Source: Psammoneis japonica (lineage: Eukaryota). From it: 64,000 nt of DNA. This document shows positions 3,511-56,759 of this stretch, one piece after another (position 1 is the first letter of the stretch; the number at the start of each line of letters is the position of its first letter). Location: the NCBI GenBank assembly GCA_008632985.1, contig QPGO01000291.1, positions 1-64,000 of the forward strand, in the 5' to 3' direction. The position numbers and the translations under genes are program-made. Under the pieces are notes generated by a model, which worked only from the letters and a program-made list of their open reading frames with translations, was not told the DNA's origin and made no database searches.

Positions 3511-3889
3511 TGCACTGTGCTCGAAGAATGAGTGCAAACGAAAGTAGAACGAAGTTCAAAAAGTGAAAATTATGAGAATTGTTTCTGCGCAATCATTTTG
3601 GGTTTCTCTGAACGGGTTCTCAATGGCCTGAGCCTTTTGCACTGCTCCTGCAGACAAAAGGCCTTTTGGAGAATGCGATTGTGACAACAGATTGTCCGGA
3701 TGCGATTGACATTGACACATGAGATGTCAACATCATCGCATGATCGCATTTTCGATTCTCAACATCCGATCACTTCTGTGTGATTGATCTGCACTTCGCA
3801 CGAACCCACGATTGACGCACGATTGAAATGTAATTTCATTTGATGCACAGATGTGCACATGTGGTGCGCACATGACAACGCATGTTGCA
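3511..3889 (-). repeat. 3' LTR of Gypsy-1
   Basis: Direct repeat of 8289-8668, preceded on the minus strand by the PPT. Confidence 0.93.
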
Positions 3890-3915
3890 TTCGCCTCCCC
3901 AATTGCACATTAGAG

Positions 3916-6900
3916 TCAGTCATCAAACGGCATCATCCGACGAATGTTGACAGTGTCAATGACGTCACCACGTTTGATCTGCACTGTGCCATCAGCATGC
4001 ACCGTTGTTGTCACATGCGGTCCAACACAGGGCTGTTCTAATTTTTGCGAGTCTTTCTCGAGCAGCATCATTTCTCCTGCTCTGTGCGTGCAAGGAGTGC
4101 GTCGAGCATTCTCTCAAGCATCATTTTTATTTGTGATTTCTTGTTTTTGCTGCTGGATTGGTTTCCAGTCTGCAACATGTTGGACATTAAATGTCATGTC
4201 CCTGTTGAAGACCAGTTGTCCTGGTGCAGCTTGCGCAGTGGCATGATGCGCAGAACGCACCGCAAATGCTGCCGCTGATGACATTCCAGTGAAAGGATCC
4301 TCAGCATCTAGAGGTGTGTGTTGCAAATCAAATGTGCAGAGCATGTTCCCCAGCACTTGATGTGCACGTTCAACAACTGCGTTTGCTTGTGGATTTTGTG
4401 TGGTCATGGGCTTGACTTTGATGCCACAATCATCTTGCACCATGTTTTTAAATTGGTGTCTGATGAACTCACTTCCACTGTCACATGCAATTGACAATGG
4501 CCAAGGATGTCTGCTCAACCATGTCCATTCTAATGGTCCAGCTGCAGTTGTGGATTCCTTGTTTGGAATTTCCACAACTTCAAACCATCCGGTTGCTGGA
4601 TCAATCATTGTCAAACATTTCAGGACTGGGGGTTCTTTCTTTCCCTTATGACGCATTTTGCACGGCCCAACAAGGTCCACACACAGTCGTTCCCATGGCA
4701 CGGATTCCGCGCACTTGTGTTTCTTTTTGAATTTTTGGCACGTCTCACATCTCGACACGTGTTTTCGCATGTCTTCACGCAAGGTGGACCACCACAGGTG
4801 TTGTGAGATTGTTTCTTCTGTTCGATTTGTGCCAGGGTGAAGAAGGTGCGCATGACACCAATCTGTCACTGCCTTTTGCAATGTCCTTGGGACGACAATT
4901 GTGTCCTTGTGACATGTGAGCAACCGGTCTCGCTCGCCTCCACGAAAAGTCTTCACATGAAACGTCTCATTTGACAATTGGGAGAGAATGTCTTTGTCCC
5001 GTTTTTGTTCACAATCGAGAACTTTTAATTTGACGGAAAGACATTGTCGCAGGATTTTGGTGGGACCTTTTCAGCCAACTCTTCTGTGCTGAGGGTTTCC
5101 ACAGGTTCTATTTTTTTCATGGCAAGTCGGCTGATCGCATCTGCGACAACAGACTGTTCGCCTTGCCCTCAAGGTACATCATTTTGGGACTGTGTTCTTC
5201 TGTCATCAGACGCCAATGCATGACTCTGTCCGTTGTGAAATTTTTGTGTGTGAGATTCTTGTGATCCGCACATGTGTTAATCTGTTGGCCAAACAGCACA
5301 TTTTGGAACTCTTTTAACGTCTCCACTGTGGACAACAGTTCTTTTTCCGTTGCAGCACAACGCGTCTGCGCTCCATTCTGCTTGCGGCTGTAGAAGGCAA
5401 TTGGTCGGTTTTTCTGCGTAATGACCGCCCCCAATTGAGAATTGCTCGCATCAGCATGTGTCTCAAAGGGTGTGTTGAAATTCGGGTGTGACAATGACAT
5501 GTCTTTAGAGATTGTGCGCTTCACATTTTCGAAGGCTTTTTGTTCTGTTTCGGTCCATTGCCACTTTGCTTGTGTAGAAGTGAGTTTGGCTAAAGGAGCT
5601 AAAACATGAGATCGTCGAGGCCACATGTCTCGACAGCAGTTGATCATGCCGACAAAGCGTCGCAATTGCTTGCGAGTTTTGGGAGTTGCGATCGCATGAA
5701 TCGCTTCTACTTTTTTCGGAATGGGACTGATGCCGTTGCGGGTGACATGAAAGCCCAGATGGTCACTTCGGGTTTAGCAAAAAAAGACTTCTCGGCGTTG
5801 ACCTTCAATCCGGCTTGTTCTAGGCGCAAGAACACCATCTCAAGCTTCTTGAGGTGGTCTTGAAAATCACCTTTTGCAAGGCACAACATGTCGTCAACAT
5901 GAGTTCTGACGAACTCCAGACCTGCCATGAGCTCACTCATGTGCTCTTGGAAAATGTCTGGAGCTCCACAGATTCCCGTGGGGAGTCCACAGCACTCACA
6001 TTTGCCCCAAGGCATGACGATCATGCACAAATGACGTGCATTCGGTGTCAGCTTGATGTGACAGCATCCCACGTTTAAATCTAGGGATGTTGCATGCATG
6101 AAACCTTCAAGCTTCTGCAGCATGTCCTGAACATTGGGCAGAGGAAACGGAGCACGCACTGACCTCTTATTTAGCTCACGAAAGTTGGATGGAAATCGGA
6201 CTCGACCATTTTTCTTTGGTTGAACAAAGGTTGGAGCTGCCCATTCAGAACAACTCATTTTTCTTAAGACCTTTGACTTGCACAGTCTTTCAACCTCTTT
6301 ACGAGCAGTCGCCTCCAAGGCTTGTGGTGCAGGAAATGGTTTGGCATGATGCGGACTCGCGCCCAGTTTCAACTTTAAATCCACCAGTTTCCCGGTCCAT
6401 TTGCCTGGAGAACCATCAAAAAGGTTTTCAAATCTTTTTAACAAGATGTTCAGCTGCCCCTGCTCTTCAGGAGTTAGATGAGTGGCTGCTGCGGTCACAT
6501 TGTTGAGGTTTGCAGTGTGACAGTCTGAGTCAAGGATCCGATTGACCCTGTCATTAAGACCAATCACTGCACGAGATTCCTCAATGAGATTGGCAATCAA
6601 CTTAAAAACATCGGCATCAAAGAGTGCATCAACATTCTTCGTAGGAGCAGTTGCATCTTCCCATTTGATCTCTTCATTCAAGAAGTCTGACATTGTCCCA
6701 AGACTTGACATTGAGTCGCGTCCCATGATCACATCACAACGACTCGAAGAAGAAGGGGAGTTGTCAACACATGCTGATGTTTCCATCATCTCATGCTTGT
6801 CAAATTCGGGTGAGGAGAATTGGATTTTACATCGACTGTCAGTCATAAAGAGCCCTCCTTTGGTTTCCCAGAGTTTGGTGGTGGACACTTTGGTTCTGAG

Positions 6901-7095
6901 TTTCCGCGTGAATTTGCGCAAAATTGTGGTTGACGATGTTCCGCTGTCGAGGAGAATGCGCAGAGGCTTGTTTTTCGCTTTGCCCAAAGAGGTGTTCATA
7001 CAAGCGACGACCACTGGACCAGCATGGATTGCTTTGGCCCTTTTTCTGAGCTTCCTGACATCCAGCAAGGCGCAAGCCTCCTCTTGCGGTGCAAG
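3916..7095 (-). pseudogene. pol: Gypsy-1 pol (protease LLDSG, RT HVDD, RNase H DAS...FYSRK, integrase VDLVGP / DSGSEF / NAVVER), frameshifted
   Basis: ORF fragments 5707-7068, 5117-5665 and 4114-4977 align with the continuous pol ORF of Gypsy-2. Confidence 0.92.
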
Positions 7096-8252
7096 TCATT
7101 CCTCAGAATCACTGCGCGTCATTTTTTCAAACTGACAATTCTCCTCGTCAAGGGTGTCAGAGTCACAATCTTTGCTCTTGCGCTTCTTGTCGTTGTTTGA
7201 AGAACTTGCTTTGAGCATTTTTTGAACTGCTTGGATCGCCATGGCATTCAACTCTTCTTTGCGAGCAGCATTGTCGTCATCGCGACGAGACCACGTGCGA
7301 CTGCCATTTGAATGGCGCCATTTTGGATCGGGTTCATAGTTCCCATGGCGTTCTTTCGCAAGTCTTTTGATCGACCAGCACTTGTCCGTGTCACGAGTGG
7401 ATTTCTCGCACAAAATGCACCACTTGTTGGACTGAGATTTTTTGGCACCATGTTGGTGACCATTTTTGGAACCACGTTGGGAACCACTCTTGGCTTTTGA
7501 TGCAGCACCACCGCTGCCATCAGCCTTGGCATGAATGCCATCGAATGTGTCCTCTGCAACCTCTGGGCGCTCCAAAAACTCAACCAACTCGTCACAGGTG
7601 TGTTTCAAAATTTCGAAACCCTGGATGGTCGACTGACGCTGCCACTTTCGAGGTGCAAGATTGAAGAGGATGTCCTTGAGCTCGTCGTCCTCGATCTTCT
7701 GCCCCTTCCCAAAGGGAGGATAGAACTTGAGGTCTTTGTTGACTTCCTGGACCCAAGCAGCAAGTTTGCACACTTTCATTGACTCCGGCTTCTTGAGATC
7801 GCGACGCAAATAGCATTTCTGCACCGAAAGTGCGCTCTTGGGAAACACATGCCTCGTGAGATGCTGCAGGCATTTCTCGAAGCTTCCTTCCGCAGATTCG
7901 TCTTCAAGGTTTGCTGCCACATTCTCGAAAGCATGTAGAGCGTCTCCTTGGAGTGACATGCGCATGAGACGGAACTCATCGGCTTGCTTCCTGATGTTCT
8001 GGCCCACTGGAAGTTGATCGTAGCTCTTGAAAAATTCGATGCACTTGGGGACACCTTGCTTCTTACAGTGCTCGACATTGATGGTGTGGGTGCGGCCATC
8101 CTTCTTCTTGGGATGAAAACGTTGCTCCTTCTTGAGGTGCTGGCTCGGTTTGAGGCTCTTCAGCTCGGAATTCGATTCCAGCGGGGTTGAGGAACGATTT
8201 TCTCCTGCCTCAACGAAGTTTTGGCGTTGGTTGCTTGAGGTGAAAGCTTCAT
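7096..8252 (-). pseudogene. gag: Gypsy-1 gag
   Basis: ORF 7096-8007 is near-identical to Gypsy-2 gag. The N-terminal part from the ATG at 8252 is shifted in frame. Confidence 0.85.
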
Positions 8253-8288
8253 CTTGAACTTGTCACCTTCTGTGGTGTGTGCACACAA

Positions 8289-8668
8289 TGCACCATGCTC
8301 GAAGAACGAGTGCAAACGAAAGTGGAGCGAAGTTCAAAAAGTGAAAATTGTGAGAATCATTTCTACGCAATCATTTTGGGTTTCTCCGAATGGGTTCTCA
8401 ACAGCCTAAACCTTTTGCACTGCTCCTGCAGACAAAAGGCCTTTCGGAGAATACGATCGTGACAACAGATTGTCCGGATGCGATTGACATTGACACGTGA
8501 GATGTCGACATCATTGTACGATCGCATTTGCGATTCTCGACATCCGATCACTGACTTCTGTGTGATCGATCTGTGCTTCGTACGAACCCACGATTGACGT
8601 GCGATTGAAACATAATTTTATTTCACACACAAATGTGCGTGTGCAATGCGTGCATGATGCATGTTGCA
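8289..8668 (-). repeat. 5' LTR of Gypsy-1
   Basis: Direct repeat of 3511-3889, bounded by TSD GCAC. Confidence 0.93.
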
Positions 8669-18237: not shown

Positions 18238-19569
18238 AATCCGAATCTGAGATACTTTCCAGTGCAGCAAGACGGACTGAGAATATAACCGCGATAGACT
18301 TACAATAGCTACATTTACACCATCGTCCGTCTTTGTTGTCTTCTGGGTTTCCTTTTTGGATTCTCCTCGTTCAAACGGATGCAAGCGTGTCCGACGTGTC
18401 AATCCCGAGGGAGTCGAGGATCACCAAAGCGGATGTTAAACCTTATTGGCGCTATTCGTTAATGTCACAGAGTTATTGCCTTTATCAACCGACATTTTCT
18501 GGAGAATGACGAGGGCAAGCACTACCGCATTGCCCGCTAACCCTTTGTCTATCTGCATTGTTGCCGAAAGCTTTTGAATACAGGACACTCAAACACAGCG
18601 CACTGTTTGATCGTAAGGGTCGTCAAAAACGGCGGGAAAGCGTCCGAATTGTTGGTTCCTCCTCTCTTACGGTAGTCCTAGGTGGAACTCTCTACCACAT
18701 CGAAGTCTGAAACCGAAAGATTTTGGATTGTCGCCCTCGCTACTACCGGTATCAGAAAATAGAGGAGAGATGATTGCTTGCACCAATCATTTTGCTGCAT
18801 TTTTTACCTCTCTATTAAGTGAGTTTTGCGCCGGGCGTCCGAATTAATTATAACATATAACGGTTGTTTTTTCGGAACAGGGTGCTACCGGTATGTACGG
18901 TACGCACTTCTGCGCGACCCACGCGACCTGACTAATGCGCGTTGGGGCCAGAGTAGTGCGTGGTGCTCTGGTTGTTTTGCTTCTGACCGTTCTGTCTTCT
19001 GTGAGGTTTCATGAGGTCATCTGTGCATGCACATTGATGTTGTCTAAGGCGAGCTGCGTTGGCTTAAGTGAACGTGTAAAAATGCGAAATTTGCGCACTG
19101 TTGCCGTTGTCTTTGCCAAATGGTTGGTCATCATTTCTGTCCACACTCGATCCGCGGCGGCTTGAGTGAAAGTCCAGGTGCATGATGTTGACGCATTGAT
19201 GCGGTTGTCTTTGCTAAACAGTTAGTTGTAACTTGCTCCATTCCATCATTTCTGTCCATGCTTGTTCTGAAGGGTCCTTGCTTGCTCCTTCTCCTGCTCC
19301 GTTGCTCCCGCTTCTTCCATCTCCTCCTCGGTGAAAAATCTCCCGGATGACTGTGGTGGTGCCGCCGCCCACGCTGCCTGTTGCTCCGTTTTGTGTGACA
19401 TTTGCGTTCACGTGTTCTTTGTTTGTTGATTGAAATCCATTCGACGTTGTGTGGCGCATGTGTGGAATTCTGCGCAATGTGCTGGTCTAATCGAAATTTT
19501 CGATTTTACAAAATTTTTGCATTTTTGCGGTGGTTGGTTTTGCCAAATAGTTGCACAGTGGTTGGGCAT

Positions 19570-22325
19570 CCTAATCTCATGTTTGCACACTACATTGACA
19601 CTTCTGCGCACTGTTGCTGAGAGAAATGCGCGGCGCTTCTCTCCTTCATGAGTCTTGTCAAGGCTTCGTGGCCTTCTGCGAGCTTGCACTTTTGTTGGTC
19701 CTTGCTTGGTGGCTTTCGCATGAACAGCCCTTCTCTGGTCTTTACTCTGGAGAGCACAACATGCGCCCAATTCTGAGTTTAGCTCCAAGAGTGTACAAAC
19801 AACTGCGGGACTCCACTCCCTTGCAGTTTGCGCCCTGCAGTGGCATTGTTGATGACAAACGGCAGCTGGGTTGCCTTCAGTTGGAAAGTGTGCCTTTGTT
19901 TGTCGCCTTCTTCTAAAATTAGGTTGGGCTTGGCAATGCAAGCCCTGAAAGTGTTTGTTTTGGGTTCAACTGAAAACTTTGTGGGGGTGATGCTTTTGTT
20001 GCAGTGTTCCAATGCAACGTGGTCCACCTGACTAGCAAGTGCAGCAGGAGTGCCAATGTTGTTGTCTAAAGTTGCCAGTCTTGGCTCCTGTCCTAGTTTG
20101 AGAACGACCTCATTGACAGTGGCTTGCGTTCCGTTTGCTTGACCTTTTGCTGCATTTTTGTTGAAAGGTGTCATGACTCTGCATCTTCTGTAAATGCGAA
20201 AGACTGGATCCATTCTTCCTGATTGCATGATGATGTCTCCTTCCCCACAGTTGTTCCAGAAGCTGTTGCAAACCGGAAACGGTTGGCAGAGTCTTGTGCC
20301 ATTCTGCACCTGCAAGTCATCACTGAAAATCAACATTGAGTCAAGGACGCTTCCATCTCTCCCAAGCAGTGTTTTTGCTCTTTTTTCAAATGGGCCAGTG
20401 TTCATTGCATCTCTGTCCTTGTTTGCGCACGCAGCACAGCGGAGGTCACTGGGCAGATCATCTTGGTTCTGGACCACTTGTTCGTTGATGTGCTCTGTGT
20501 CCTCAACTGCAATCTCACCAGTGCGGAATCTCTCAAGCAGTTGTCCCCATGCTGGATCGTTTCTAAACCTGTGCACGCCACGAAGCTCCACGTGGCAGTT
20601 GATCCACTCGTGATTTTCAGGACATGCATCTTTGTGCAGTGGTTTCACTCCTTTTCCGACTGGCTCCAGTTGCCTGAGGTCACCTGCGAAAACAATGTTG
20701 ACACCACCGTGCGGCTTGCTTGGTTCGCTTTTCAATGCTGTTAAATTCTTGTGGAGTTTTTTCAGCTCTCTCTTGCTTGCAAAAGATGTCTCGTCTGCCA
20801 CCAAAAGTCTCGTGTCTGACCATGTTTCAATTTGTTCTTCGGTTGTTTGCTTTTTTCTCATGAGGCATGCAACTCGGTGGATTGTGTCCCCTTTGAGAAC
20901 AGTCGTGGCCACTCCAGTCAGTGCAGTTGTTCTGATTGTGCTTGTTGTGAACGGCTGCTCGACAAGCGAGCAATGCTCTCCACCGCATTCCATGACGAGG
21001 TCTGTCATGGTTGATTTACCACTTCCACCTGCACCATGCAAAAAACACACAAGTTGCAACATTCTGCGTCTTTGCACTTCCACGAGTCTCTTCAATTGGC
21101 GAAGGTTTGTTGTGAAGTCATGTCTGCTGTTTCTTCTGTTGAGTTCATTGCCTGACGTCTCATCTTGAAGAGCATCTTGGTGGCAAGTGAGCACAAAGGT
21201 TCCTGCCAGAATTTCAAAGGCATGCTGCTGTTGCCTGTCCAGTCTTGCTTTCCCAGCCCAGTCTACAACACTTGCTGCAGATTTGTTTGCTTGACACACA
21301 TCAACATGTTCCTCCAAACCTGTCATGTCTTCAAATGACCTTCTTGTTCTTTGTGCTCTAGTCAGTGTCACTCGAACAATGTCATCTCTTGACAGAGTTC
21401 TGCTGTGGATGTCTTGTTCTGCTCCTTCATTCTGCTCCTCCTTGTCGGTGTCATCGTCGCCCTCTAGATTCTCAAAAAGTTGTCGTTCATCAACCTGGCT
21501 TTCCTCATTTGGTGGGTCAGTGTGCATGTCTGCCAAGCATTTGCAACCACCCATGTGTGGACCTTTCTGTCTTGCATGTTCACCACTCAAATGCGCAGGA
21601 ACAACTGCTTGGTCGCTCAACCCAATGTCATTGTCTTCTGGCTGCTCTGCCATTTCTTCCAAGAGTGCATCCAGCAGTTGGCCCTGAACGGCGCCTGAAA
21701 GACCTTCTTTCTCACCTGATTTGAGCTCTTCTCGTTTCCTTTTCCGTGACTGTGCGTCCAGTTCCTTGTGTGGGGCAACTTTGCGCATTTTACGCAATTC
21801 CATGCATTTGGGAAAACACGACTTCGTAACGTGCATGTGCTGGTTGTAAGCTGCGTCCGGCATGTGTGCCTCTGTTGTCCCCTGCGGACTGCTTTGCTGG
21901 CACTGCGCACACATTGCTTTTAGTTGATTCGCACGGTTGTCTGGATGGCAAGTCAGGCCAGGTGCACGATGTCGTGACTGCAAAAAGCTTTCTACAAACT
22001 CAACGTTTGTCCAGCACTTGGTGCAGTGACAACAACAAGCAAACATCCCGTTCTTTGACTGCTGGCCGTCTTTGTGCCTCAGGTTTCTCAGCTGTTGGTC
22101 GTCTGCTGCTTTCAGGGAGCTGCAGCACCATTTTGGCACTGTGCAGTCATGATCAAATGCTTCACAAAACGCGCTGGTGCTAAACTCTTCGCCAGAGATT
22201 AATCTGTGCTGCAGATCTTCTGAACTGTGTTGGCAAGGTGCTCAGCACCTTCGCATCGGATCTGTCTTGTTGGTGAATGCAGTTTCTCTCTTGCATTGTT
22301 GATCAATGTGAGCCAGATCTGCATG
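19570..22325 (-). pseudogene. Helitron RepHel, C-terminal part: end of Rep plus PIF1-family SF1B helicase
   Basis: HGAGGSGKST (I), TALTGVA (Ia), LVADETS (II), GGVNIVFAGDLRQLEPV (III), HRFRND (IV), ANGT, QLPF...KLQG (V), and NWAHVVLSRV (VI) after an in-frame TAA at 19779. Lower end approximate. Confidence 0.85.
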
Positions 22326-22706
22326 TGCAACATGCGTTGTCATGCACGCATTACATGTGTGTGTCTGTGTGTTAAATAAAAGCACATTTCAATCGCACGT
22401 CAATCGTGGGTTCGTACGAAGTACAGATCAGCCACACAGAAGTGATCGGATGTCGAGAATCGCAAATGCAATCGTACGATGATGTTGACATCTCATGTGT
22501 CAATGTCAATCGTATCCGGACAATCTGTCATCACGATCACATTCTCCGAAAGGCCTTTTGTCTGCAGGAGCAGTGCAAAAGGTTTGGGCCATTGAGAACC
22601 CGTTCGGAGAAACCCAAAATGATTGCGCAGAAACAATTCTCATAATTTTTTCACCTTTTGAACTTCGTTCTACTTTCGTTTACACTCGTTCTTCGAGCAC
22701 AGTGCA
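22326..22706 (+). repeat. 5' LTR of Gypsy-2
   Basis: Direct repeat of 27125-27505. Confidence 0.95.
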
Positions 22707-22742
22707 TTGTGCACACACACCACAGAAGGCAACAAGTTCAAG

Positions 22743-23897
22743 ATGAAGCTTTCACCTCATGCAGCCAACGCCAAAACTTCGTTGAGGCAGGAGAAAATCG
22801 TCCCTCAACCGCTGGAATCGAACTCTGAGCTGAAGAGCCTCAAACCAAGCCAGCACCTCAAGATGGAGCAACGTTTTCATCCCGAGAAGAAGGACAGCCG
22901 CACCCACACCATCAATGTTGAGTGCCACAAGAAACAAGGTGTCCCCAAGTTCATCGAATTTCTCAAGAGCTACGATCAACTTCCAGTGGGCCAGAACATC
23001 AGGAAGCAATCTGACAAGTTTCGTCTCATGCGCATGTTGCTCCAAGGAGACGCTCTACGTGCTTTCGAGAATGCGGCAGCGAACCTTGAAGACGAATCTG
23101 TGGAAGGAAGCTTCGAGAAATGCCTGCAACATCTCACGAGGCATGTGTTTCCCAAGAACGCACTTTTGGTGCAGAAACGTTATTTGCGTCGTGATCTCAA
23201 GAAGCCGGAGTCCATGAAAGCACGCGAAATTGCTGCTTGGGTCCAGGAAGTCAACGAAGACCTCAAGTTCCACCCTCCCTTTGGGAAGGAACAGAAGATC
23301 GAGGACGACGAGCTCAAGGACATCCTCTTCAACCTCGCACCTCGAAAGTGGCAGCGTCAGTCGACCGTCCAGGGTTTCGAAATTTTGAAACATGCCTGTG
23401 ACGAGTTGGTTGAGTTCTTGGAGCGCCCAGAGGTCGCAGAAGACACATTTGATGGCATTCATGCCAAGGCTGATGGCAGTGGCGGTGCTGCATCAAAAGC
23501 CAAGAGTGGTTCCCAACGTGGTTCCAAAAATGGTCACCAACATGGTGCCGAAAAATCTCAGTCCGAGAAGTGGTGCATTTCATGCGAGAAATCCACTCAC
23601 AACACGGACAAGTGCTGGTCGATCAAAAGACTTGCGAAAGAACGCCGTGGGAACTATGAACCCGACCCGAAACGGCGCCGTTCAAATGGCAATCGCACGT
23701 GGTCTCGTCGCGACAACGATGACGCCGCTCGCAAAGAAGAGTTGAATGCTGTGGCGATCCAAGCAGTTCAAAAAACACTCAAAGCGAGTTCTTCGAACAA
23801 TGACAAAAAACACAAGAGCAAAGATTGTGATTCTGATGCCCTTGACGAGGAAAATTGTCAGTTTGAAAAAATGACGCGCAGTGATTCTGAGGAATGA
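22743..23897 (+). CDS. gag: Gypsy-2 gag
   Basis: Open frame MKLSPH...SDSEE*, with a CxxCx4Hx4C knuckle (WCISCEKSTHNTDKC). Confidence 0.85.
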   Translation: MKLSPHAANAKTSLRQEKIVPQPLESNSELKSLKPSQHLKMEQRFHPEKKDSRTHTINVECHKKQGVPKFIEFLKSYDQLPVGQNIRKQSDKFRLMRMLLQGDALRAFENAAANLEDESVEGSFEKCLQHLTRHVFPKNALLVQKRYLRRDLKKPESMKAREIAAWVQEVNEDLKFHPPFGKEQKIEDDELKDILFNLAPRKWQRQSTVQGFEILKHACDELVEFLERPEVAEDTFDGIHAKADGSGGAASKAKSGSQRGSKNGHQHGAEKSQSEKWCISCEKSTHNTDKCWSIKRLAKERRGNYEPDPKRRRSNGNRTWSRRDNDDAARKEELNAVAIQAVQKTLKASSSNNDKKHKSKDCDSDALDEENCQFEKMTRSDSEE

Positions 23898-26800
23898 CTT
23901 GCACCGCAAGAGGAGTCTTGTGCTCTGCTGGACATTAGGAAGCCCAGAAAAAGGGCCAAAGCAATTCACACTAGTCCAGCAGTCGTCGCCTGTATGAACA
24001 CTTCATTGGGTAAGGCGAAAAACAAGCCTCTGCGCGTTCTCCTTGACAGCGGAACATCGTCATCCATAATTTTGCGCAAATTCACGCGGAAACTCAGAAC
24101 AAAAGCATCCGCCACCAAACTCTGGGAAACCAAAGGAGGGCTCTTCACGACTGACAGTCGATGTAAGATCCAATTCTCCTTGCCCGAATTTGACAAACAC
24201 AAGATGATTGAAACAACGGTGTGTGTTGATGGCTCCCCTTCTTCTTCGAGTCGTTATGACATGATCATGGGACGCGACTTAATGTCAAGTCTTGGGACAA
24301 TGTTGGACTTCTCGAATGAAGAGATTAAATGGGAAGATGCAACTGCTCCCATGAAGAATGTTGACACACTCTTCGATGCCGATGTTTTTAAGTTGATTGC
24401 CGATCATGTTGAGGAATCTCATGCAGTGATCAGTCTTAATGACAGGGTCAATCGGATCCTTGACTCAGACTGTCACGCTGCAAACCTCAACAATGTGACC
24501 GCAGCAGCCACTCATCTAACTCCTGAAGAGCAGAAGCAGCTGAACTTCCTCTTAAAAAGATTTGAAAACCTTTTCGATGGTTCTCCAGGCAAATGGAATG
24601 GGAAACCGGTGGATTTAAAGTTGAAATCGGGCGTGAGTCCGCATCATGCCAAACCATTTCCCGCACCACAAGCCTTGGAGGCGACTGCTCGTAAGGAGGT
24701 TGAAAGACCATGCAAGTTGAAGGTCTCAAGAAAAATAAATTGTTCTGAATGGGCGGCTCCAACCTTTGTTCAACCCAAGAAAAATGGCAGAGTTCGGTTC
24801 TCACCCGACTTTCGTGAGCTAAATGAGAGGTTAATTCGCACTCCGTTTCCTCTGCCCAATGTTCAGGATGTGCCACAGAAGCTCGAAGGCTTCATGCATG
24901 CAACGTCCCTAGATTTAAACATGGGATGCCATCACATCGAATTGACGCCACATGCACGTCGCTTGTGCACGATCGTCATGCCTTGGGGCAAACATGAGTG
25001 CTGTGGACTCCCGATGGGAATCTGTGGAGCTCCAGACATTTTCCAAGAGCACATGAGTGAACTCATGGCAGGTCTGGAGTTCGTCAGAACTTGTGTTGAC
25101 GATGTGTTGTGTCTTGCAAAAGGTGATTTTCAAGACCACCTCAAGAAGCTTGAAACAGTGTTCTTGCGCCTAGAACAAGCCGGATTGAAGGTCAACGCCG
25201 AGAAGTCCTTTTTCGCTAAACCCGAAGTGGACTATCTAGGCTTTCATGTCACCCGCAAGGGCATCAGTCCGATTCCAAAAAAAGTAGAAGCGATTCACGC
25301 GATCGCAACTCCTAAAACTCGCAAGGAATTGCGACGCTTTGTCGGTGTGATCAACTGCTGTCGAGACATGTGGCCTCGACGATCTCATGTTTTAGCTCCT
25401 TTGGCCAAACTCACTTCTGCCCAAGTGAAGTGGCAATGGACCGAAACAGAACAAAAAGCCTTCGAAAATGTGAAGCGCATCATCTCCAAAGATGCACCAT
25501 CATCACACCCGAATTTTAATGCACCCTTTGAGACACACACCGATGCCAGCAATTCTCAATTGGGGGTGGTCATTGCTCAGAAAAACCGACCAATTGCCTT
25601 CTACAGCCGCAAGCTGAGTGGAGCGCAGACGCATTGTGCTGCAACGGAAAAAGAACTGTTGTCCACAGTGGAGACATTAAAAGAGTTCCGCAATGTGCTG
25701 TTTGGCCAACAGACAAATGTGCACACGGATCACAAAAATCTCACACACAAAAATTTCACAACGGACAGAGTCATGCATTGGCGTCTAACAACAGAAGAAC
25801 ACAGTCCCAAAATGACATGCCTTGAGGGCAAGGCAAACATTGTTGCAGATGCGACCAGCCGACTCACCATGAAGAAAATAGAACCCATGGAAACCCTCAG
25901 CACAGAAGAGCTGGCTGAAAAGGTCCCACCAAAATCCTGCGACAATGTCTTTCCGTTAAATTGCAAAGTTCTTGATTGTGAACAAAAACGGGACAAAGAC
26001 ATTCTCTCCCAATTGTCAAATGAGACGTTTCATACGAAGACTTTTCGTGGAGGCGAGCGAGACCGGTTGCTCACATGTCACAAGGACAAAATTGTCATCC
26101 CGAGGACGTTACAAAAGGCAGTGATGGATTGGTGTCATGCGCACCTTCTTCACCCTGGCACAAATCGAACAGAAGAAACAATCTCACAACACCTGTGGTG
26201 GTCCACCTTACGTGAAGACATACGAAAACACGTGTTGAGATGTGAGACGTGCCAAAAATTCAAAAAGAAACACAAGAAATGTGGACATTTGCCTCCCAAG
26301 TGCGCAGAATCCGCACCATGGGAACGACTGTGTGTGGACCTCATTGGGCCATACAAAATGCATCGTAAGGGAAAGAAAAAACCCCCAGTCCTGAAATGTT
26401 CAACTGTGATCGATCCAGCAACCGGATGGTTTGAAGTTGTGGAAATCCCAAACGAGGAGTCCACAACTGCAGCTGGACTGCTAGAACGAACATGGTCAAG
26501 TGGACATCCTTGGCCATCGTCAATCACACGTGACCGTGGAAGTGAGTTCATCGGACACCAATTTAGAGAAATGGTGCAAGATGATTGTGGCATTAAAGTC
26601 AAGCCTATAACTACACGAAATCCACAAGCAAACGCAATTATTGAACGCGTACATCAAGCACTGGGGAACATGCTCCGTACATTTGATTTACAACATACAC
26701 CTCTAGATACTGAGGATCCTTTCGCTGGAATACTATCAGCGGTAGCGTTTGCGGTACGTTCTACGTATCATACCACTACGCAAGCTACACCAGGACAACT

Positions 26801-27098
26801 AGTCTTCAATAGAGACATGATATTTAACGTCCAACATGTCGCAGACTGGAAATTAATCCAGCAGCGAAAACAAGAAATCATAAATAAAAATAACGCTCGA
26901 GAGAATGCTCGACGTACTCCTTACACGTACAGAGTAGGAGAAAAGATACTACTCGAGAAAGACTCGCAAAAATTAGAACAGCCCTATGTTGGACCGTATG
27001 TAATAACAACGGTACATACTAATGGCACAGTACAGATCAAACGCGGTAACGTTATTGACACTGTCAATATTCGTCGAATAATACCGTTTAACGACTGA
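23898..27098 (+). CDS. pol: Gypsy-2 pol (PR-RT-RNase H-IN), in frame with gag after a single TGA; RT motif mutated to CVDD
   Basis: LLDSG, WAAPTF, CVDDVL, TDAS...FYSRKL, HLLHPG...CETC zinc finger, VDLIGP / DRGSEF / NAIIER integrase, GPY motif. Confidence 0.93.
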   Translation, partial: LAPQEESCALLDIRKPRKRAKAIHTSPAVVACMNTSLGKAKNKPLRVLLDSGTSSSIILRKFTRKLRTKASATKLWETKGGLFTTDSRCKIQFSLPEFDKHKMIETTVCVDGSPSSSSRYDMIMGRDLMSSLGTMLDFSNEEIKWEDATAPMKNVDTLFDADVFKLIADHVEESHAVISLNDRVNRILDSDCHAANLNNVTAAATHLTPEEQKQLNFLLKRFENLFDGSPGKWNGKPVDLKLKSGVSPHHAKPFPAPQALEATARKEVERPCKLKVSRKINCSEWAAPTFVQPKKNGRVRFSPDFRELNERLIRTPFPLPNVQDVPQKLEGFMHATSLDLNMGCHHIELTPHARRLCTIVMPWGKHECCGLPMGICGAPDIFQEHMSELMAGLEFVRTCVDDVLCLAKGDFQDHLKKLETVFLRLEQAGLKVNAEKSFFAKPEVDYLGFHVTRKGISPIPKKVEAIHAIATPKTRKELRRFVGVINCCRDMWPRRSHVLAPLAKLTSAQVKWQWTETEQKAFENVKRIISKDAPSSHPNFNAPFETHTDASNSQLGVVIAQKNRPIAFYSRKLSGAQTHCAATEKELLSTVETLKEFRNVLFGQQTNVHTDHKNLTHKNFTTDRVMHWRLTTEEHSPKMTCLEGKANIVADATSRLTMKKIEPMETLSTEELAEKVPPKSCDNVFPLNCKVLDCEQKRDKDILSQLSNETFHTKTFRGGERDRLLTCHKDKIVIPRTLQKAVMDWCHAHLLHPGTNRTEETISQHLWWSTLREDIRKHVLRCETCQKFKKKHKKCGHLPPKCAESAPWERLCVDLIGPYKMHRKGKKKPPVLKCSTVIDPATGWFEVVEIPNEESTTAAGLLERTWSSGHPWPSSITRDRGSEFIGHQFREMVQDDCGIKVKPITTRNPQANAIIERVHQALGNMLRTFDLQHTPLDTEDPFAGILSAVAFAVRSTYHTTTQATPGQLVFNRDMIFNVQHVADWKLIQQRKQEIINKNNARENARRTPYTYRVGEKILLEKDSQKLEQPYVGPYVITTVHTNGTVQIKRGNVIDTVNIRRIIPFND

Positions 27099-27124
27099 CT
27101 CTAATGTGCAATTAGGGAGGCGAA

Positions 27125-27505
27125 TGCAATATGCGTTGTCATGTACGTATTATATATGTATATCTATATATTAAATAAAAGTATATTTCAATCGTACGTC
27201 AATCGTGGGTTCGTACGAAGTACAGATCAGTCACACAGAAGTGATCGGATGTCGAGAATCGCAAATGCGATCGTACGATGATGTTGACATCTTATGTGTC
27301 AATGTCAATCGTATCCGGACAATCTGTCGTCACGATCATATTCTCCGAAAGGCCTTTTGTCTGTAGGAGCAGTACAAAAGGTTTAGGCTGTTGAGAACCC
27401 GTTCGGAGAAACCCAAAATGATTGCGCAGAAACAATTCTCACAATTTTTTCACCTTTTGAACTTCGTTCTACTTTCGTTTACACTCGTTCTTCGAGCACG
27501 GTGCA
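27125..27505 (+). repeat. 3' LTR of Gypsy-2 (least mutated LTR in the window)
   Basis: Retains the TA-rich U3 tract tatatatgtatatctatatatt. Confidence 0.95.
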
Positions 27506-27720: not shown

Positions 27721-27769
27721 GGTTGCGACCAGGGCGAGTTCCGGTCACCACAACAGGGGCATGCTTCAC

Positions 27770-28640: not shown

Positions 28641-28951
28641 TTGTGGTGGGTGCAGCATTGCGCAAATTCTGCAGAATTGCGCTTTGGCGAGTCGCGGGGC
28701 AGTTGAGTTGGTCGTGTGGCAATGACAATGCGACTGACGTCATTCGGGTTTCCAACGCACGCGCAAATCCTCCAAATGGGTGATGGGCCCACTGGTGCCA
28801 GCAATGACGTCGACTCGTTTAGATTTCGTGCACAATGGCCGTGCGCGAATTTTTCAAATGCGGCGTGCTAACTCCACCTGTGCACCAAGCAATGTAGAAA
28901 GTCATTTTAAACAGACATCAAGACGCGTTGATTTGTTAAGACGCGTTCAGG

Positions 28952-31900
28952 TGCAGCATGCGACTGTTGCACACATGTTTGTGATTGTGTGTCATTTGTG
29001 TGTCAATCGCACCACAGTCGTGGATGCGTGCAAAGGACAGAACGATCACACAGAGTTGATCGGATGTCGAGAATTGCAAATACGATCGATTGACGATGTT
29101 GACATCTTGCGTGTCAATGGCAATCGCACCCGGACAATCTGTTGTCACGAATGTGTTCTCCGAAAGGCCTTTTGTCTGTAGAAGCAGCACAGAAGCTTTA
29201 GGCCATTGAGAACTCGTTCGGAGAAACCAAAAATCACAGAGCAAAATTCAATCTTATAATTTTCACTTTTCGAACTTCGTTCTACTTTCGTTTGCACTCG
29301 TTCTTCGAGCACAGTGCATTGTGTGTGCACACCACAGAAGGTAAAAAGCACGGAAAATGAAAATTTCAACTAATGTGCCTTTGTAAATTCTTCTATGAAC
29401 AGGAGCGAATCGCATCAGTTCTGCTGGAAACGATTTCCGAGCGGAAGAAGCTCAATCCGAGCAGCACCTCAAGATGGAACGCTGTTTTTCGTCTGCCAAA
29501 CAAGAGGATTCGCTCTAATGCGGTCTATTCCAAGCACCCAAGGATCAAGGGCTCTCAAGCACACCGCATTGTCAAAAAATCTACACCAATTCATGGTTGC
29601 AGAGAATGCAAGTTCCGAGTCGATCAGATCCGAGAAATGCGTCTACCATGCAAGGAGAGACTGTTGGAGAGTTTTTGGAGACCGAATCAACGAGCCTCGA
29701 GTCCAAGAGCAAGATGGAACCGTTGGAAAGTACCTCAAGAGTCTCGTGTCTCATGTCTTTCCAAGAATTGCACTTCAGAATCAGAGTTGTTATTTTCAAG
29801 ACGATCTGAAGAAAACAGAGCTGCTTGACAGCAAGAAAGCCTCTGTTAGACCCAAGAGGTCAATGATGAGAGTCCATGCGACCCTCAGATGGATTCTAAG
29901 TCGAATCTAGCGGGAAACCGAGCGCTGATTTATCAGCTGTCACTCGCACCGCAAGGATGGCAGCATCAGTCTACTGTCCAAAACAATCAACTGTTGCAAC
30001 TCATCCTTGATGAGCTGATTAAGTTTTGAGTCATCTAAAGGTCGTTCATGACGTCCGTGACGAAAAAACATATCAACTCAGGCTCTGATGGTGCAGTTGG
30101 TTCCAAAATAAAAAAGGTTCCAAATTTGGTTCCAAAAATGGTCTCCTGCATGGTGCCAGAACAATCCAAAGTGAATGCAAGGTCTCGTCTTTGAAAAAAG
30201 AATGCCCACATCACGGATTGAAGCCATTCTAAAAATGAACTAGCAAAAGAGTGCAAGGGTGACTCTGAAAGAGACCCAAAAATGCGCCGTTCAAATGGCA
30301 ATCGCACGCGGTCGCGTCGCGATAACGAAAATGCCGCTCGCAAAAAAAGAGATGAACGTCATGATTGATCAGGCGGTTCAAAAAATGCTCAAAGCGAGTT
30401 CCTTGAACAAAGAAAAAGAGCATGAGGGCAAAGAATCAGATTCTGACACCCTCAGTGAAGAAAAATGCCAATTTGATCGGATGATCCAGACTGAATCCGA
30501 AGAATAATTTTGGTCCATTCACGAATTACATGCTTTGCTGGATGTTAGGAAGCCTAGAAAAAAGGCAGAAATAATTCACACTAGTCCAGGAGTCATCATT
30601 TATATGAGTGCTTCCTTGGGAAAGGAGAAAAAAAAAAAGCATCTACGTGTTCCTGTCGATGACGGAACATCGTCAACCACAATTTTGCGCAAATTCGTGC
30701 GAAAGTTGAGAACACAAGAATCCGCCACCAAAAACTTGGGAAACCAAGGGTGAGCTCTTTACGACTGACAATAAACACCGAATTCAGTTCTCACTGTGCG
30801 AAATTTAAGGCATGCTGACATGCAAACAGCATGTGTTGAAAACACCAAATTTTCTTCAGGTTCAAATGACATGACCATGGGACGCGACTTAATGTCCAGT
30901 CCTGCAAGTCACATTGGACTGCGCAAATGAAGAAATCTAATGGGAAGAAGCAATTGCCTTATGAAGAATGTTCACACACTCTTCGATGCCGATGTTTTCA
31001 AGCTGAAAACCGATCACATTGAAAAATGTGACGCCGTGAATAGAGTCAATGACGGAACCAATGGACCTCGACTCACATCATCACGCCATCGATCTTAATC
31101 AAGTGACAACTGCGGCGATGCATCTAACCCAAATGAACACAACCAACTCAATCTTCTTCTTAAGAGGTTGAAATCGTTTTGAAAAGTTCCTCAGACGAAT
31201 GTGTGGGAAGCACCAGCGGATCTCATCGTGGAAAATCTGACGCGATTCCACGACGCGTGAGAACCTTCTCCTGTCACAGTCTTTGGAGGCGTCCAATCAA
31301 AAGGAGTTTGACCCACCATGAAAGATTGAAGTCTTAAGAATGAAATTGCTCTGAACAAGTCGCTCTGAGACTCATTGTCTGAAGAAAACAGGTCGAGTTC
31401 AACCGCACCCGACACTCAGAAGCTCAGTGTGAGGTTCATGCAGGTGGTGCATCCTTTGCCCAACATTCAGGAAATGCCATTGAAGCAAGAACGTTTCATG
31501 TGTGTAATCTATTTGATTCAAACATGGAATGCCACCATGTCAAATAAAAAAAGCACACGTCGTGCTCACACGAAAATCATGCCGTGGGGAGAAAATGAGC
31601 ACTGTGGACTTCCAATGAGAATCCACAGAGCCCCAGACATTTTTGTGCAACACTTGAGTGAACTCACAACAGGTTTGAAGTTGTCAGAACGACTGCATGT
31701 GATCGTTTGTGCCTGACAAAAGTAACTTCAAAATGTCACCTGTACAAGTGACAGCTTAATGCGGCATTCAAACGACTAGAACAGTCGCTTAGAAGGTTAA
31801 CAACAAAAGTCCTTCACCATTTAACTTGAAACAAACTATCAAGACTTCCGTGCGTAACGACATGCAATCGATTACAAAGAAAATGGAGGCGATTCAAGCA

Positions 31901-33678
31901 ATCGCAACACGAGAAAAACGTAAAGAACACTGCGACATCTCGTTGTCATGCGTTGCCATTGTCGAGACATGTAGTCTCAACAATCTCCTGTACAATGCTA
32001 GCCAAATTCACCTCAACAAAGGTCAAACGGCAAAAGTGCAAGTACGGAACGAAAAGTCTCCGAAAATATGGAGCGCATCAAATCAAAAACTATGTTGTCA
32101 TCATACACGGATTTCAACATCACACGTTACAACGGAAAAAAGAACTTCTGTCCATAGTGAAAACACTCATAAAATTCCGAAATGTGCTGTTTGGCCAACA
32201 GATTTATACACACACGGATCACAAGACACAACGGACAAAGTCATGCGTTGACAACTTCAGTCCCGAATTAGAATGCAACGAGGGCAAGGCGAACATCGTC
32301 GCGATGGACGCGATCAGCCGACTCACCATAGAAAATTGAATCCTACGACAATGTCCTGCCGTTAAAACGGGATAAAGACATTCCCTCCAAATTGTCGGAC
32401 GCGACACATCATACGAACACTTTTCGTGGAGGCGAGCGAGATCGAAAAATGCTCATGTCACAAGGACAAAATCGCCTTTTTAAAGGACGATTTAGGAAAA
32501 AACAGTGACAGATTGGCGTGCATTATACACACCCACTTCACACTGGCAAAAGACAATCTCACAACACCCGCGCGGTTGTGTTGTACAATGTACGAGGCAA
32601 GACATTAAAATGTGCATCATGTCGACACACGAGATGTGCCAAAGATCTAGAAAAAGAAAAGAAAAATGGACATTTGTCCACTCAGTGCACGAAACCAGTG
32701 CCTTCAGAATGACAAAATGACACCGGCATGTCAGAAAGAAACGTCCAAATGACGATTAAAATCCAACTGATAGATGGTTGAAGTGCAAAAAAAAAAAATC
32801 CACAATGGAATTCATGACCATCACAGGATTGATTGTCAAGACGAAATGGTCACAATGTCTTTGACCATCGTTTGTTGTTGCTTGTGAAACGTGGTGGTGC
32901 AGCAGAGCAACATGGCACACAAAGTAAGCCCGCCAAACCACATGAAATCCACAAGCAAGTGAGTGAACGCCACAATTAAGAGTGCACATTAAGCACTGGG
33001 CACGATGCCATGTACAATCGACATCAGGAAAAACACTTGCTCCAGGACAATTAGTCCTTGTGTTCATGTCAACAAGAACGTCAATGAGAATGCTCGACGT
33101 AACACTACACACACACACACCAAGTGAGAAACAAACAATGTCACTCTCAAAAGACATTCGGAAATTGGAGCGGCCCTGTGTTGCCCGTGCAAAACAACAA
33201 CAGTCATTGCCAATGGCACAATGCAGTGAAAGTGGAGACATTGTTGACACTGTCGATGTCCGTCGAATGATCCACTTGCAAATGACTCTAATGTGCAATT
33301 AGGGAGGCGAGTGCAGCATGCGACTGTCATGCACACATTTGTGATCATACATTGTTCACACGTCAATCGCACCACAGTCGTGGATGCGTGCAAAGGACAG
33401 AACGATCACACAGAGTTGATCGGATGTCGAGAATTGCAAATACGATCGATTGACGATGTTGACATCTCACGTGTCAATGGCAATCGTATCCGGACAATCT
33501 GTTGTCACGAACACATTCTCCGAAAGGCCTTTTGTCTGTAGAAGCAGTGCAGAAGCTTTGGGCCATTGAGAACTCGTTCGGAGAAACCAAAAATCACAGA
33601 GCAAAATTCAATCTTATAATTTTCACTTTTCGAACTTCGTTCTACTTTCGTTTACACTCGTTCTTCGAGCACAGTGCA
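28952..33678 (+). mobile_element. Ty3/Gypsy copy 3: related subfamily, internally decayed and non-autonomous
   Basis: 367-bp LTRs 28952-29318 and 33312-33678, 4-bp TSD CAGG (28948-28951, 33679-33682), PPT AGGGAGGCGAG. Internal fragments (KMLKASS, DDGTSSTTILRKF, MPWGENEHCGLPM, FRNVLFGQQIYTHTDHK) are colinear with Gypsy-2 but full of indels. Confidence 0.92.
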
Positions 33679-33764
33679 CAGGCGGGAAAATCCGTTTTGA
33701 AACTAAGCCTGCTTCTCATCGTCATCGTCCTTGTGCACCCGTGCAATTCGAGTGCACAAGCTGG

Positions 33765-43327: not shown

Positions 43328-43866
43328 ATGGAAGATCAATCTGAATCAAATGGCATTTAAGGCCATGTCGACAAGTTCCTGATCTGGGTTTCCTTGATTG
43401 GTGGTGGTGCTGCTTTGATTTTCATGACCGCCTTTTCCATTTAGAATATCCTGGTGATGTGCAAAGCATTGAATGCACCAATTGTTGGAGCAGAGGACAG
43501 TTTGGTCCTTGTTTTGGTGGGTGTGGTGGCACTCTCAATTCCACTGGGGTCATGTGCAGGTGCTCACATTGAAGTCAAAGTGCTGGAGAAACGCGTGTCT
43601 CCAGCCTTCGTGAAGTGGTTGATGATTTTTGTGAAGATGCTGGGCATTGCACTGCTGTTCACCATGGCCTGGTGCACCTGGCATGCCAGGCAAAGCATCA
43701 GCCATTTTGGGGAAACCACACAACAATTGTTGATTTTTGTGAGCCCTTTTGTTGTGTTCTTGCCATGTCCGCAGTGCTGCATGCATTGGCTCTGCTGATT
43801 TGCATCTGGCAGCTGCTGCACAATTGCCAGATCCCCAAAATCAGATTCAACGGCAATGCACTGTGA
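43328..43866 (+). pseudogene. dctQ: Bacterial TRAP transporter small permease, decayed
   Basis: ...KALNAPIVGAED.LVLVLVGVVALSIPLG...GAHIEV.VL...FGETTQQLLI...PF matches the DctQ layout. GGAGG lies just upstream. The stop overlaps the next start (TGATG 43864-43868). Confidence 0.8.
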
Positions 43867-45095
43867 TGAGCGGCATGACACTGACAGGTCTGCTGGGGCT
43901 GATTGTTCTGTTTCTGCTGTTGGTGCTGCACATGCCAGTTGCACTGTTGATGCTGGGCATTGGCTTCATTGGCACCATTGCCAATGCAAACAATTCATGC
44001 TGATTGGTGCGGGGCTGATCAAGCTTGGGCCTGTGGCTGGAAAGTTGCCTGCTCCAATCTTGCTGCAGAAACCTTCAATGCCAGCCATCTCCAACTTCAA
44101 TTTGCTGGTGATCTCTGTGTTTTTTTTGTTTTGATGAGCCATCTTGTTGGTGCTTTGGGCATGTCAAAAGATCTGTTTGCAGCAGCCTGCCATTGCACGG
44201 TCATGTCATCTGCTCAGAGGGCTTGCTTCCACCATGATTGCTGCCTGTTCTGGTTTTGCCACACTTTCAGGCTGCTTGCTTGCCTCTGCCATCACCACAA
44301 GCTGTGCCGTGCTGCCCAAATAAAGCAATGCAAATGTGATGATGGGCTGGCAACTGGATCGGTCACAGCCGGCAGCACACTTCTTGGCTTCCTGATCCTG
44401 CCCTCTGGTGGCATGATCATTTGTGCTGTCCTTGCCAAGCAATGAATTGGGCATCTGTTCATGGTGGGGATCATTTCAGGAGTCTTTCTGAAACTGCTTT
44501 TCACAGGTGCCATTTATCTGGTGGTCCACTGCAACCCCAAAGCTGGACCTCAAGGTGAAAAGTCAAGCTGTGAGGACTGCATGTCAGCCCTGTGGCACTC
44601 AATTCCAATCATTGCAGTTGTGCTGATCACACCATCGGTGGCATGCACACTGGCTTTCACTCCCATCGGAGCCTCCTCTGTCAGAGCTTTTTTGACATTT
44701 GTTGTTGTGCTGTTGCATCATTCACTGTCACTCAAAAAGATCCATTTTGCATTTCTTGAAACAATGAGCACCACATCAATGGTCTTCCTGATCATCATCA
44801 GCGCGTTTGTGTTTGTTCCATTCATGTCATTGACACCAAGCTGCCCAGTCAGCTTGTTTTGTTCCTGACCTTGTTGCCTGTTGGCATGGTTGGGGTGCTT
44901 TTGGTGATCATTGCAACTCATCTGTTCCTGGGCATGTTTCTGGATCGCCTTTTCCATTGTTTGGAACATCATGGTGATGTGCAAAGCATTGAATGCATGG
45001 TTGGGGTGCTTTTGGTGATCATTGCAACTTGTCTGTTCCTGGGCAAGTTTCTGGAAAGCATTGCCATGCTGGTGCTGGCCATTCCCATTGTGGCG
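43866..45095 (+). pseudogene. dctM: Bacterial TRAP transporter large permease, decayed and 3'-truncated
   Basis: LFLLLVLHMPVALLMLGIGFIG, GMSKDLFAAA, DDGLATGSVTAGSTLLGFLILPSGGMII.AVL, LFMVGIISG, FTP..ASSV, LFLGMFL/ESIAMLVL.IPI match DctM consensus segments. Confidence 0.85.
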
Positions 45096-45569
45096 TGGTG
45101 CAGTCAGTCCTCATCTTTCGAAAATGATTGTGGTCTTGGCCTTGTAAACTTAGAACTGGAAACTGCAATGTGGATTTGCTCGAAACAAACTGCAGCAATT
45201 CTGTTCTGCAAGGCAAGTCCTGTTTGAAAACCTTGCAATGACCTTTGATGCAATGTCGCCCATCACGGCATGGAGAGGCAGGAGTTCACCTGCCGAAATG
45301 GCAGACAAAGTCAACAACACGAAAAAACATTCTTCATTCCAGACACTCATGCAAAGGTGGAAGATGCTCTTCTGGAAGATTGAAACACACACAAGCAAGC
45401 ATGAGCCACATGAGCCATTTGGTCTTCCTCTTCAGGAAAATGCATTGGAAGCTCACTGAGTGGAAGCCCGGGTTGCAACATGAACAAGCAATCACACTCT
45501 TCTTCATCGGGAATGTGAAGACTTGGCAGGCATCCACTTGCGCTTGTAGAGGCAGTCTCCGCTGAAATG

Positions 45570-46930: not shown

Positions 46931-47627
46931 GTTTCGACAATCAACAAAAACGTTGCGATTGCAAGAGCACTGTTCACTGTTCCTGTCAGCTCATCTTTGG
47001 TTCTCGGTTTTGGATTTTTGCGCAGCCGAGGGCAGCCAGGGGGTGCAGCCAGCGGATGGAGAAGGCAGGGCAGGCAGATGAAGAAGAGGGAAGACAGGCA
47101 GGCAGACAGACATTGTGCTCGAAATGAAAAAAATTGGGCACTTTCACAATCAAATGTTTGCATGTGTGGGAACATGTTCCAAACACTGCCACACACAAAT
47201 GAGACCAAGGCACCACCTCATTGCATCAGCTCCGCATGGACGGCTGTGAGAGCCATCCAAATCGTGACGTCATGTTTGTGTTTGTTTGATGCAATGTTTG
47301 GGTGATTTGTTGGTTACACTGGAAATCAACATCGAGCAAGAACAGTCTGGAAGCAAGAACAGGCAGAGAGTTTTGTCAGTTGGCACCCTCATTGTAAATT
47401 TCCAGAATGGTGAGTTGTTGTTGTGTGTGCTGCAATGGACAATTGCCCCTTGTTGCTCAACCAGCTCCCACCACACTTTGAAAAGCACTCAGTTTCAACC
47501 ACAGTTTTGGCAACTTGTGTCTGCTGCGTCTCTCTCATGCGCCACTGTGGATGCCTTTTGGGCTCTCAAGGAAGCCTGTTCTGCCAGCAAATGGTTGTGC
47601 TGTGCACAGTCATGTGCAGTGTGCATG

Positions 47628-56750: not shown

Positions 56751-56759
56751 TGCCATTGG

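Follow-up and report, generated by a model that had tools for sequence, protein, structure and literature searches.

TpA hypermutation with an extended sequence context and same-strand doublets in transposons of the diatom Psammoneis japonica

Within transposable elements of the diatom Psammoneis japonica, TA steps are converted to TG or CA in a sequence context, and with a coupling between neighbouring adenines, that point to an adenine deaminase acting on chromosomal DNA. We analysed a stretch of 64,000 nucleotides (nt) from this genome (GenBank assembly GCA_008632985.1, contig QPGO01000291.1, positions 1 to 64,000 of the forward strand; hereafter the window), which carries two copies of a long terminal repeat (LTR) retrotransposon, family 1, along with members of two other repeated families. 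A preliminary description of the window had proposed, from 90 nt aligned between the two family 1 copies, a mutator that prefers 5'-TAY-3' (Y, pyrimidine; R, purine). We derived the mutation signature from about 80 copies of the three transposon families. T immediately 5' of the target adenine is nearly obligatory, a pyrimidine 3' of it is preferred about 2.5-3 fold, and nearby adenines of the same strand are often converted together. The features of the window that enter the analysis are:

22326..27505, plus strand: Ty3/gypsy-order LTR retrotransposon of family 1, with 381-nt LTRs at 22326-22706 and 27125-27505
23898-27098, plus strand: pol frame of the family 1 element (reverse transcriptase, RNase H, integrase)
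26741..26830, plus strand: 90 nt in the integrase region of family 1, TA sites unconverted here
4184..4273, minus strand: matching 90 nt in the twin copy, with 10 of 11 TA sites now TG or CA
3511..8668, minus strand: twin copy of family 1, with conversion over its full length
26590..27330, plus strand: spared tract (edges approximate) in the otherwise converted family 1 element, holding 26741..26830
22353..22372, plus strand: TA array in the 5' LTR of the family 1 element, compared with the 3' LTR
28951..33680, plus strand: LTR retrotransposon of family 2, about 67% like family 1 in pol; an independent replicate
19378..21713, minus strand: family 3, part of a PIF1-helicase-bearing repeated element; the second replicate
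43501..62900, no strand: end-state block of 19.4 kb with 66 TA remaining, CpG depleted too

RESULTS

Conversion is specific to TA and favours TAY

We took 30 of the 41 listed matches for family 1 (20 refetched at full length, plus the two copies in the window), 30 of 41 for family 2 and 30 of 39 for family 3. Changes in families 1 and 2 were scored against natural copies that had kept most TA sites unconverted, those in family 3 without a reference, and a two-state model that took no account of context assigned the converted and spared tracts. In converted tracts 5059 of 6659 TA sites (76%) were changed, with 5019 transitions and only 24 transversions (0.5%). Adenines outside TA and not adjoining a TA adenine were scarcely touched: among columns with the reference base in at least half of the copies, 72/6039 AAY and 40/8838 AAR adenines were changed in tracts, compared with 5/3110 and 12/4517 in spared tracts, and the family 2 tracts had 6/6024 changes at nAR and 3/2309 at nATB. 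T at -1 of the target adenine is nearly obligatory.

The preference for TAY replicated in all three families. The TAY/TAR rate ratio, from a competing-risk fit with bootstrap over sites, was 2.56 in family 1 (2.1-3.05; 3847 observations at 293 sites), 3.0 in family 2 (1936 observations, 189 sites) and 2.7 in family 3 (100 sites). While the proposed bias is thus real, the mutator is TA-specific rather than TAY-specific, with TAR adenines converted at 35-40% of the TAY rate. A joint fit over context (5683 observations, 474 sites, site bootstrap) gave relative rates at +1 of 1 for A, 1.7 for G (1.35-2.2), 3.3 for C (2.7-4.3) and 3.8 for T (3.2-4.9), and a mild preference for A at -2 and -3 (others 0.54-0.75) and for C at +2 (1.6). 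This preference is tied to the strand: YTAY sites went to TG 848 times and to CA 386 times, whereas RTAR sites went to CA 650 times and to TG 293 times. Local AT content had no effect on conversion, and each nearby CpG slightly lowered its rate (0.88).

The TAY bias accounts, as had been suggested, for a sweep of Tyr to Cys or His in the family 1 pol frame of the window, where 20 of 31 conserved Tyr columns are now Cys or His. The polarity is independent of the choice of reference, since the 31 columns hold Tyr in 120 outside pol proteins. At these columns the best 120 pol homologues had at most two Cys or His each, although a best-match listing favours unmutated copies and is uninformative on how widespread the sweep is.

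Surviving TA sites are enriched in YTAR

The original 90-nt comparison proved accurate. The segments 26741-26830 (plus strand) and 4184-4273 (minus strand) align without gaps and differ at 10 of 11 TA sites, by five A>G changes at TAC, one at TAG (in CTAG) and four T>C changes at RTA, with a TTAA as the survivor; the three remaining differences are two CpG transitions and an AGAG>AGGG. The sample is as small as was admitted at the time. Four of the ten changed sites are RTAY, with TAY on both strands, and one is YTAR, leaving just five one-sided sites that are informative for strand choice, and in all five the TAY strand was the one changed (a chance of 1 in 32 if there were no preference).

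The impression, gained by eye, that leftover TA steps are mostly YTAR also held. In the end-state block 37 of 66 are YTAR and 3 are RTAY, and among 142 TA in 95 flank windows of 500 nt, TA-depleted and drawn from other contigs, the numbers were 84 and 3, compared with 17% YTAR and 30% RTAY in 80 TA-rich windows. Survival was 13% for RTAY, 20-27% for one-sided sites and, in the two LTR families, 52-62% for YTAR. The class does survive, but with 38-48% of it converted it is slowed rather than immune, and few such sites are left even in the old block (37 across 19.4 kb).

Neighbouring adenines of one strand are converted together

The same-strand doublets ATA>GTG and TAA>TGG were enriched 4-15 times, a new observation here. 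A non-target A at -2 was changed in 7-8% of cases when the TA was converted on the same strand and in about 1% when the opposite strand was converted (62/908 vs 10/1017; 44/523 vs 3/543), and family 3 showed the same excess (22/514 vs 3/486). For A at +1 the values were 5% and 0.5-1.3% (24/455 vs 10/764; 11/221 vs 2/416), and a hint at +2 (12/239 vs 4/234) was not significant. These bystander events came from 62 and 29 strand-sites and from most copies, every one was A>G, and bases other than A showed no comparable same-strand excess. By exact distance, the excess was found solely at 2 nt (0.68 vs 0.52; 0.78 vs 0.56), with no coupling at 3 nt. No same-strand excess was seen between sites 6 to 320 nt apart, and in one bin (321-640 nt, family 1) strand choice was below expectation.

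Coupling was strongest in TATA. Isolated TATA sites became TGTG or CACA in 263 of 336 cases, where 149 were expected, and independence of the two adenines was rejected by 45-75 log-likelihood units. Sequential independent changes cannot explain these doublets, because natural TGTA and TACA sites go mostly to TGCA (121 vs 83; 289 vs 195), yet only 24 of the 336 TATA sites ended in that form. Both adenines are converted in about half of TATA events. In the TA array at 22353..22372, six same-strand A>G changes lie within 15 nt (22357, 22361, 22363, 22367, 22369 and 22371) relative to the 3' LTR.

Conversion occurs in DNA, copy by copy and in tracts

TA conversion occurs in DNA after insertion, separately in each copy. 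Copies shared TG/CA alleles at the level of chance (0.60 vs 0.61 expected, 209 pairs; 0.59 vs 0.61, 140 pairs), with one related pair (L031-L047) sharing 0.94 of alleles, and the two LTRs of the family 1 element at 22326..27505 differ at 25 places, 21 of which are TA steps. Strand bias was small or absent (top/bottom 0.88 and 0.98 in two families); the strand tests left out L031, L038, L047, L076, L078 and L088, which are references or related copies. Conversion level had no significant relation to other divergence among 20 copies. Three family 1 copies (L009, L010 and L025) carry identical TG/CA alleles, indicating that some conversions were inherited via later transposition; their changes are diffuse and partly inherited, and they were left out of one family 1 tract comparison. 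A check of the letters themselves covered 19000-33700 of the window: contig pieces of run X1, 1843 of them, agree with it at 99% or better in every one of 30 bins and differ in one letter; run X1 may be the assembly's own sample (the library is not on record), so that the match counts against error and not for generality.

The mutation keeps to domains of foreign or repeated DNA, with a TA observed/expected ratio (o/e) of 0.01-0.3 within elements vs 0.45-0.8 in gene-rich kilobases of the window. All 30 family 3 copies taken were converted, and both converted and spared tracts are found inside single copies. CpG decay was 3-5 times greater in tracts (197/3514 vs 38/2194; in family 2, 63/2199 vs 19/3419), though far slower than the loss of TA, and the tracts would correspond to silenced, CpG-methylated chromatin. 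Tract edges recur at positions 2800-3300, 3960-4130 and 4220-4410 of the family 1 element (about 25100-26740 of the window) and at about 32400-32750 in family 2. They recur in independent copies and in both polarities, at roughly homologous integrase positions of families that are about 67% alike, which suggests a chromatin boundary set by sequence or an internal promoter.

DISCUSSION

An adenine deaminase as the probable mutator

We consider it probable that the changes are made by an adenine deaminase working on silenced chromosomal DNA in which a few bases have been opened. The near-pure transitions suit a base that miscodes better than an abasic site or an error-prone polymerase. The lack of long strand runs, the little or no transcription-strand bias and the absence of a hairpin effect argue that duplex DNA was attacked many separate times, and adenine-only bystanders within 2 nt of one strand point to an enzyme gripping a few opened bases. 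Of the known single steps, adenine deamination is the one that gives such a pattern. The enzyme would act in silenced repeat domains, need T at -1, prefer T or C at +1 and have a mild liking for A at -2/-3 and C at +2. The adenine, presumably the base attacked rather than its partner T, would become inosine and be copied as G, turning TA into TG or CA by the strand attacked, and a converted TA would no longer be a target. Such events would be small and scattered over many cell divisions. One engagement would span about four bases of one strand and reach the nearest adenines (-2, +1 and perhaps +2), with co-conversion of about 5-8% of neighbours lacking a 5' T and of roughly half within TATA.

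Several points weigh against this interpretation. Sequence alone cannot tell whether an A changed to G or the T opposite it to C, the copies were chosen by similarity to the query (the best 39-40 candidates scored per search), and the direction of the doublets depends on fit assumptions. The preliminary description had named a TadA/ADAT-like deaminase, which suits the T at -1 and Y at +1 but not the motif of wild-type TadA, UACG in a loop: TACG is disfavoured, at 0.56 of the additive expectation (0.40-0.82; 69 strand-sites), perhaps because of a methyl-C at +1, and conversion is indifferent to hairpin loops (1.03, 0.85-1.28; 129 strand-sites). The deaminases found in the genome resemble an ordinary set, an endonuclease V homologue is encoded, and the asparagine of the ADAT2-like protein described below is, as far as is known, general in ADAT2. 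An evolved TadA fused to T7 polymerase is reported to mutate dA in any context (PMC10085711). Fungal ADAT2/3 (Tad2-Tad3-Ame1), described as redirected to mRNA with U at -1 kept (PMC11156358), is alike in being a tRNA deaminase on new substrates with U at -1, but it favours a purine at +1 and hairpin loops in mRNA, whereas here the substrate is DNA, the +1 base a pyrimidine and hairpins are without influence.

Alternative explanations

A modification written at TpA might instead miscode or be converted, either as a modified T pairing with G (T>C at RTA) or as a TA-specific methyl-adenine that is then deaminated. Strand-symmetric data fit a T-centred motif (R-T-A-T) equally well, the tracts coincide with CpG decay, and many C5-methyltransferase-like sequences are present (27 matches). 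We nevertheless regard this as unlikely. We know of no enzyme that gives near-pure T>C, and searches for TET/JBP and MT-A70 gave no match, weak blanks given that both controls were silent. N6-methyladenine (6mA) of the ApT type, which had been put forward as coupled to deamination, is at odds with TAC being as good as TAT (3.3 vs 3.8) and with the sparing of ApT without a 5' T (nATB, 3/2309 in family 2).

Polymerase iota, a rival absent from the preliminary description, is a serious one, though less economical than a deaminase, and we think its involvement rather improbable. Short repair patches opened at TpA would be filled by iota, which places G opposite template T, and a patch of 2-3 nt would yield the doublets. 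A homologue is encoded (L147, G000:C22:252628; best PDB match iota at E 2e-26, with kappa at 1e-14 and eta at 1e-12) and has the iota finger residues: counted from Asp34, Gln59 and Val64 are kept, and Ile stands at Leu62, a replacement reported to leave the G:T habit of human iota intact (PMC3031609). Iota is described as inserting G opposite T 3-10 times as often as A, as distributive and as having deoxyribose phosphate (dRP)-lyase activity (PMC3979402, PMC8595933). With base rates fixed, the doublets do lean 5' to 3' (0.60 vs 0.29), but the lean is gone once rates are freed, and the 5' side (-2) has bystanders as often as the 3' side. The coupling ends at 2 nt, conversion is TA-only whereas iota acts at any template T, and a second, TA-specific nicking or excision step would be required. 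Fungal iota is reported to put T opposite T more often than A, yet A>T-type changes number 14 vs 5019 transitions.

Error-prone synthesis by polymerase eta, also among the original candidates, makes A>G at WA (W, A or T) with AA and TA changed at rates of comparable magnitude. The genome encodes eta and, besides it, an eta-like gene, but AA>AG reached 0.5-1.2% in tracts vs 76% at TA, the very comparison by which the preliminary description had proposed to judge it, and we consider eta a very improbable source. RNA editing by an ADAR ahead of reverse transcription is hardly credible either: two of the three families are retroelements and two ADAT1/ADAR-family genes are present, but both strands are affected about equally, the LTRs of one copy differ, the PIF1-bearing element has the same signature, and the slight ADAR preference for G at +1 with a weak -1 rule, as reported, is unlike the signature here. 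A sequencing or assembly artefact deserves as little credence, with 19000-33700 reproduced but for one letter by the run X1 contigs, even if these may come from the assembly's own sample. Ultraviolet TA photoproducts were rejected, as transversions would be expected and the tracts would be left unexplained.

Relation to known systems

A deaminase of the kind proposed here would, by analogy, work like an adenine base editor and like a reversed form of repeat-induced point mutation (RIP). RIP, which belongs to the sexual cycle of ascomycetes, has C>T polarity; like the diatom process, it makes transitions at a specific dinucleotide until repeats are saturated, on both strands and after they have inserted, but its polarity is the opposite and the diatom elements show no long same-strand runs. 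DddA-type cytosine deaminases are bacterial toxins with a strict 5' T that act on duplex DNA without secondary structure, and are alike in these respects but for the cytosine target. Adenine base editors were evolved from a tRNA enzyme. Those derived from TadA are reported to edit TAY best and MAR (M, A or C) worst (PMC10879117), and resemble the diatom process in making A>G in DNA, in this ranking and in co-editing neighbouring adenines; they differ in being engineered, guided to opened DNA and much looser at -1, whereas here the process is natural and T is nearly obligatory.

The closest relative is found in integrated viral DNA of Bigelowiella natans, where TpA-only A>G/T>C hypermutation was described and ADAT2 proposed (Mettrop et al., bioRxiv 10.64898/2026.01.13.699255). 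As far as the preprint's main text describes it, both systems make A>G and T>C at TpA only, in foreign-DNA domains and far above background. There the host is a rhizarian, studied in mutation-accumulation lines with single-copy viral inserts; here it is a diatom with transposons near saturation, an extended motif and same-strand doublets. That main text makes no mention of flanking context beyond TpA or of diatoms (the supplements may hold context data), and we found no other report of TpA hypermutation in a literature search that mostly left subscription papers outside. The diatom process belongs with the Bigelowiella process.

Candidate genes

An enzyme of the TadA/ADAT2 fold is our first guess, held at slightly under an even chance; a diatom ADAR-like paralogue, the second guess, seems unlikely. 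Deaminase searches, which left out ADAT3 and the APOBEC-like, DYW and DddA-like clans, found a dCMP deaminase, a TadA-like, an ADAT2-like and a RibD gene, two other small deaminases and two ADAT1/ADAR-family genes. The TadA-like gene (C38:7368) has HxE and PCxxC. The ADAT2-like gene (L056, G000:C26:119851) has HxE, PCxxC and the Asn called pivotal by Mettrop et al., and in its protein an inserted segment of about 60 residues separates HAE from PCxxC. The second ADAT1/ADAR-family gene (L066/L067, G000:C79:344558-345390) encodes an editase domain with zinc ligands that resembles ADAR catalytic domains and is conserved across centric and pennate diatoms; PF02137 alone is annotated in it, with no RNA-binding domain, and a homologue look-up gave only PF02137 clusters. 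A further frame (L055, G000:C79:87006-90176) joins a zinc deaminase to an apparent 2-oxoglutarate/Fe oxygenase domain, from a translation read by eye, and its role is probably in purine metabolism.

Five Y-family polymerase genes are encoded: REV1-like and kappa-like (both by reading translations), eta, eta-like (L150, C19:616608) and iota. A fusion of a deaminase or Y-family polymerase to a chromatin reader, which the preliminary description had proposed to look for, was not seen among the matches examined (introns limit this). No AAG/MPG glycosylase was matched, where the control matched in 4/14. Repeated C5-methyltransferase-like genes (L104-L106, L110 and L113, on C297, C301 and C28) are themselves TA-depleted (o/e 0.03-0.11) and are possibly borne by mobile elements.

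Implications

We know of no natural enzyme that has been demonstrated to deaminate adenine in chromosomal DNA at such a scale. The fingerprint obtained here (T required on the 5' side, Y at +1 favoured about 2.5-3 fold, TACG low, doublets at -2/+1 and none beyond 2 nt) permits candidates to be screened and lets the Bigelowiella data be checked for a common origin. Tentatively, and as a conjecture somewhat more apt to fail than to hold, we propose that diatoms, and probably other SAR (stramenopile, alveolate, rhizarian) algae, carry a natural adenine base editor for duplex DNA in silenced chromatin, which would read A-A-T-[A]-Y and edit, on one strand, a window some four bases wide, serving as the A>G counterpart of RIP, with the same enzyme family behind the Bigelowiella hypermutation. 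Dating elements by LTR divergence is invalid in such genomes unless TA sites are masked.

Other features of the window

The family 1 element is flanked by CATG at 22322-22325 and 27506-27509, a likely target-site duplication. For a housekeeping protein encoded in the window, every named relative is from a diatom. Long coding tandem repeats at 37779-40126 and 41904-43111 adjoin DUF7467 domains. The first of these retains its TA steps (o/e 1.6) despite being repetitive, indicating that repetition alone is no trigger of conversion.

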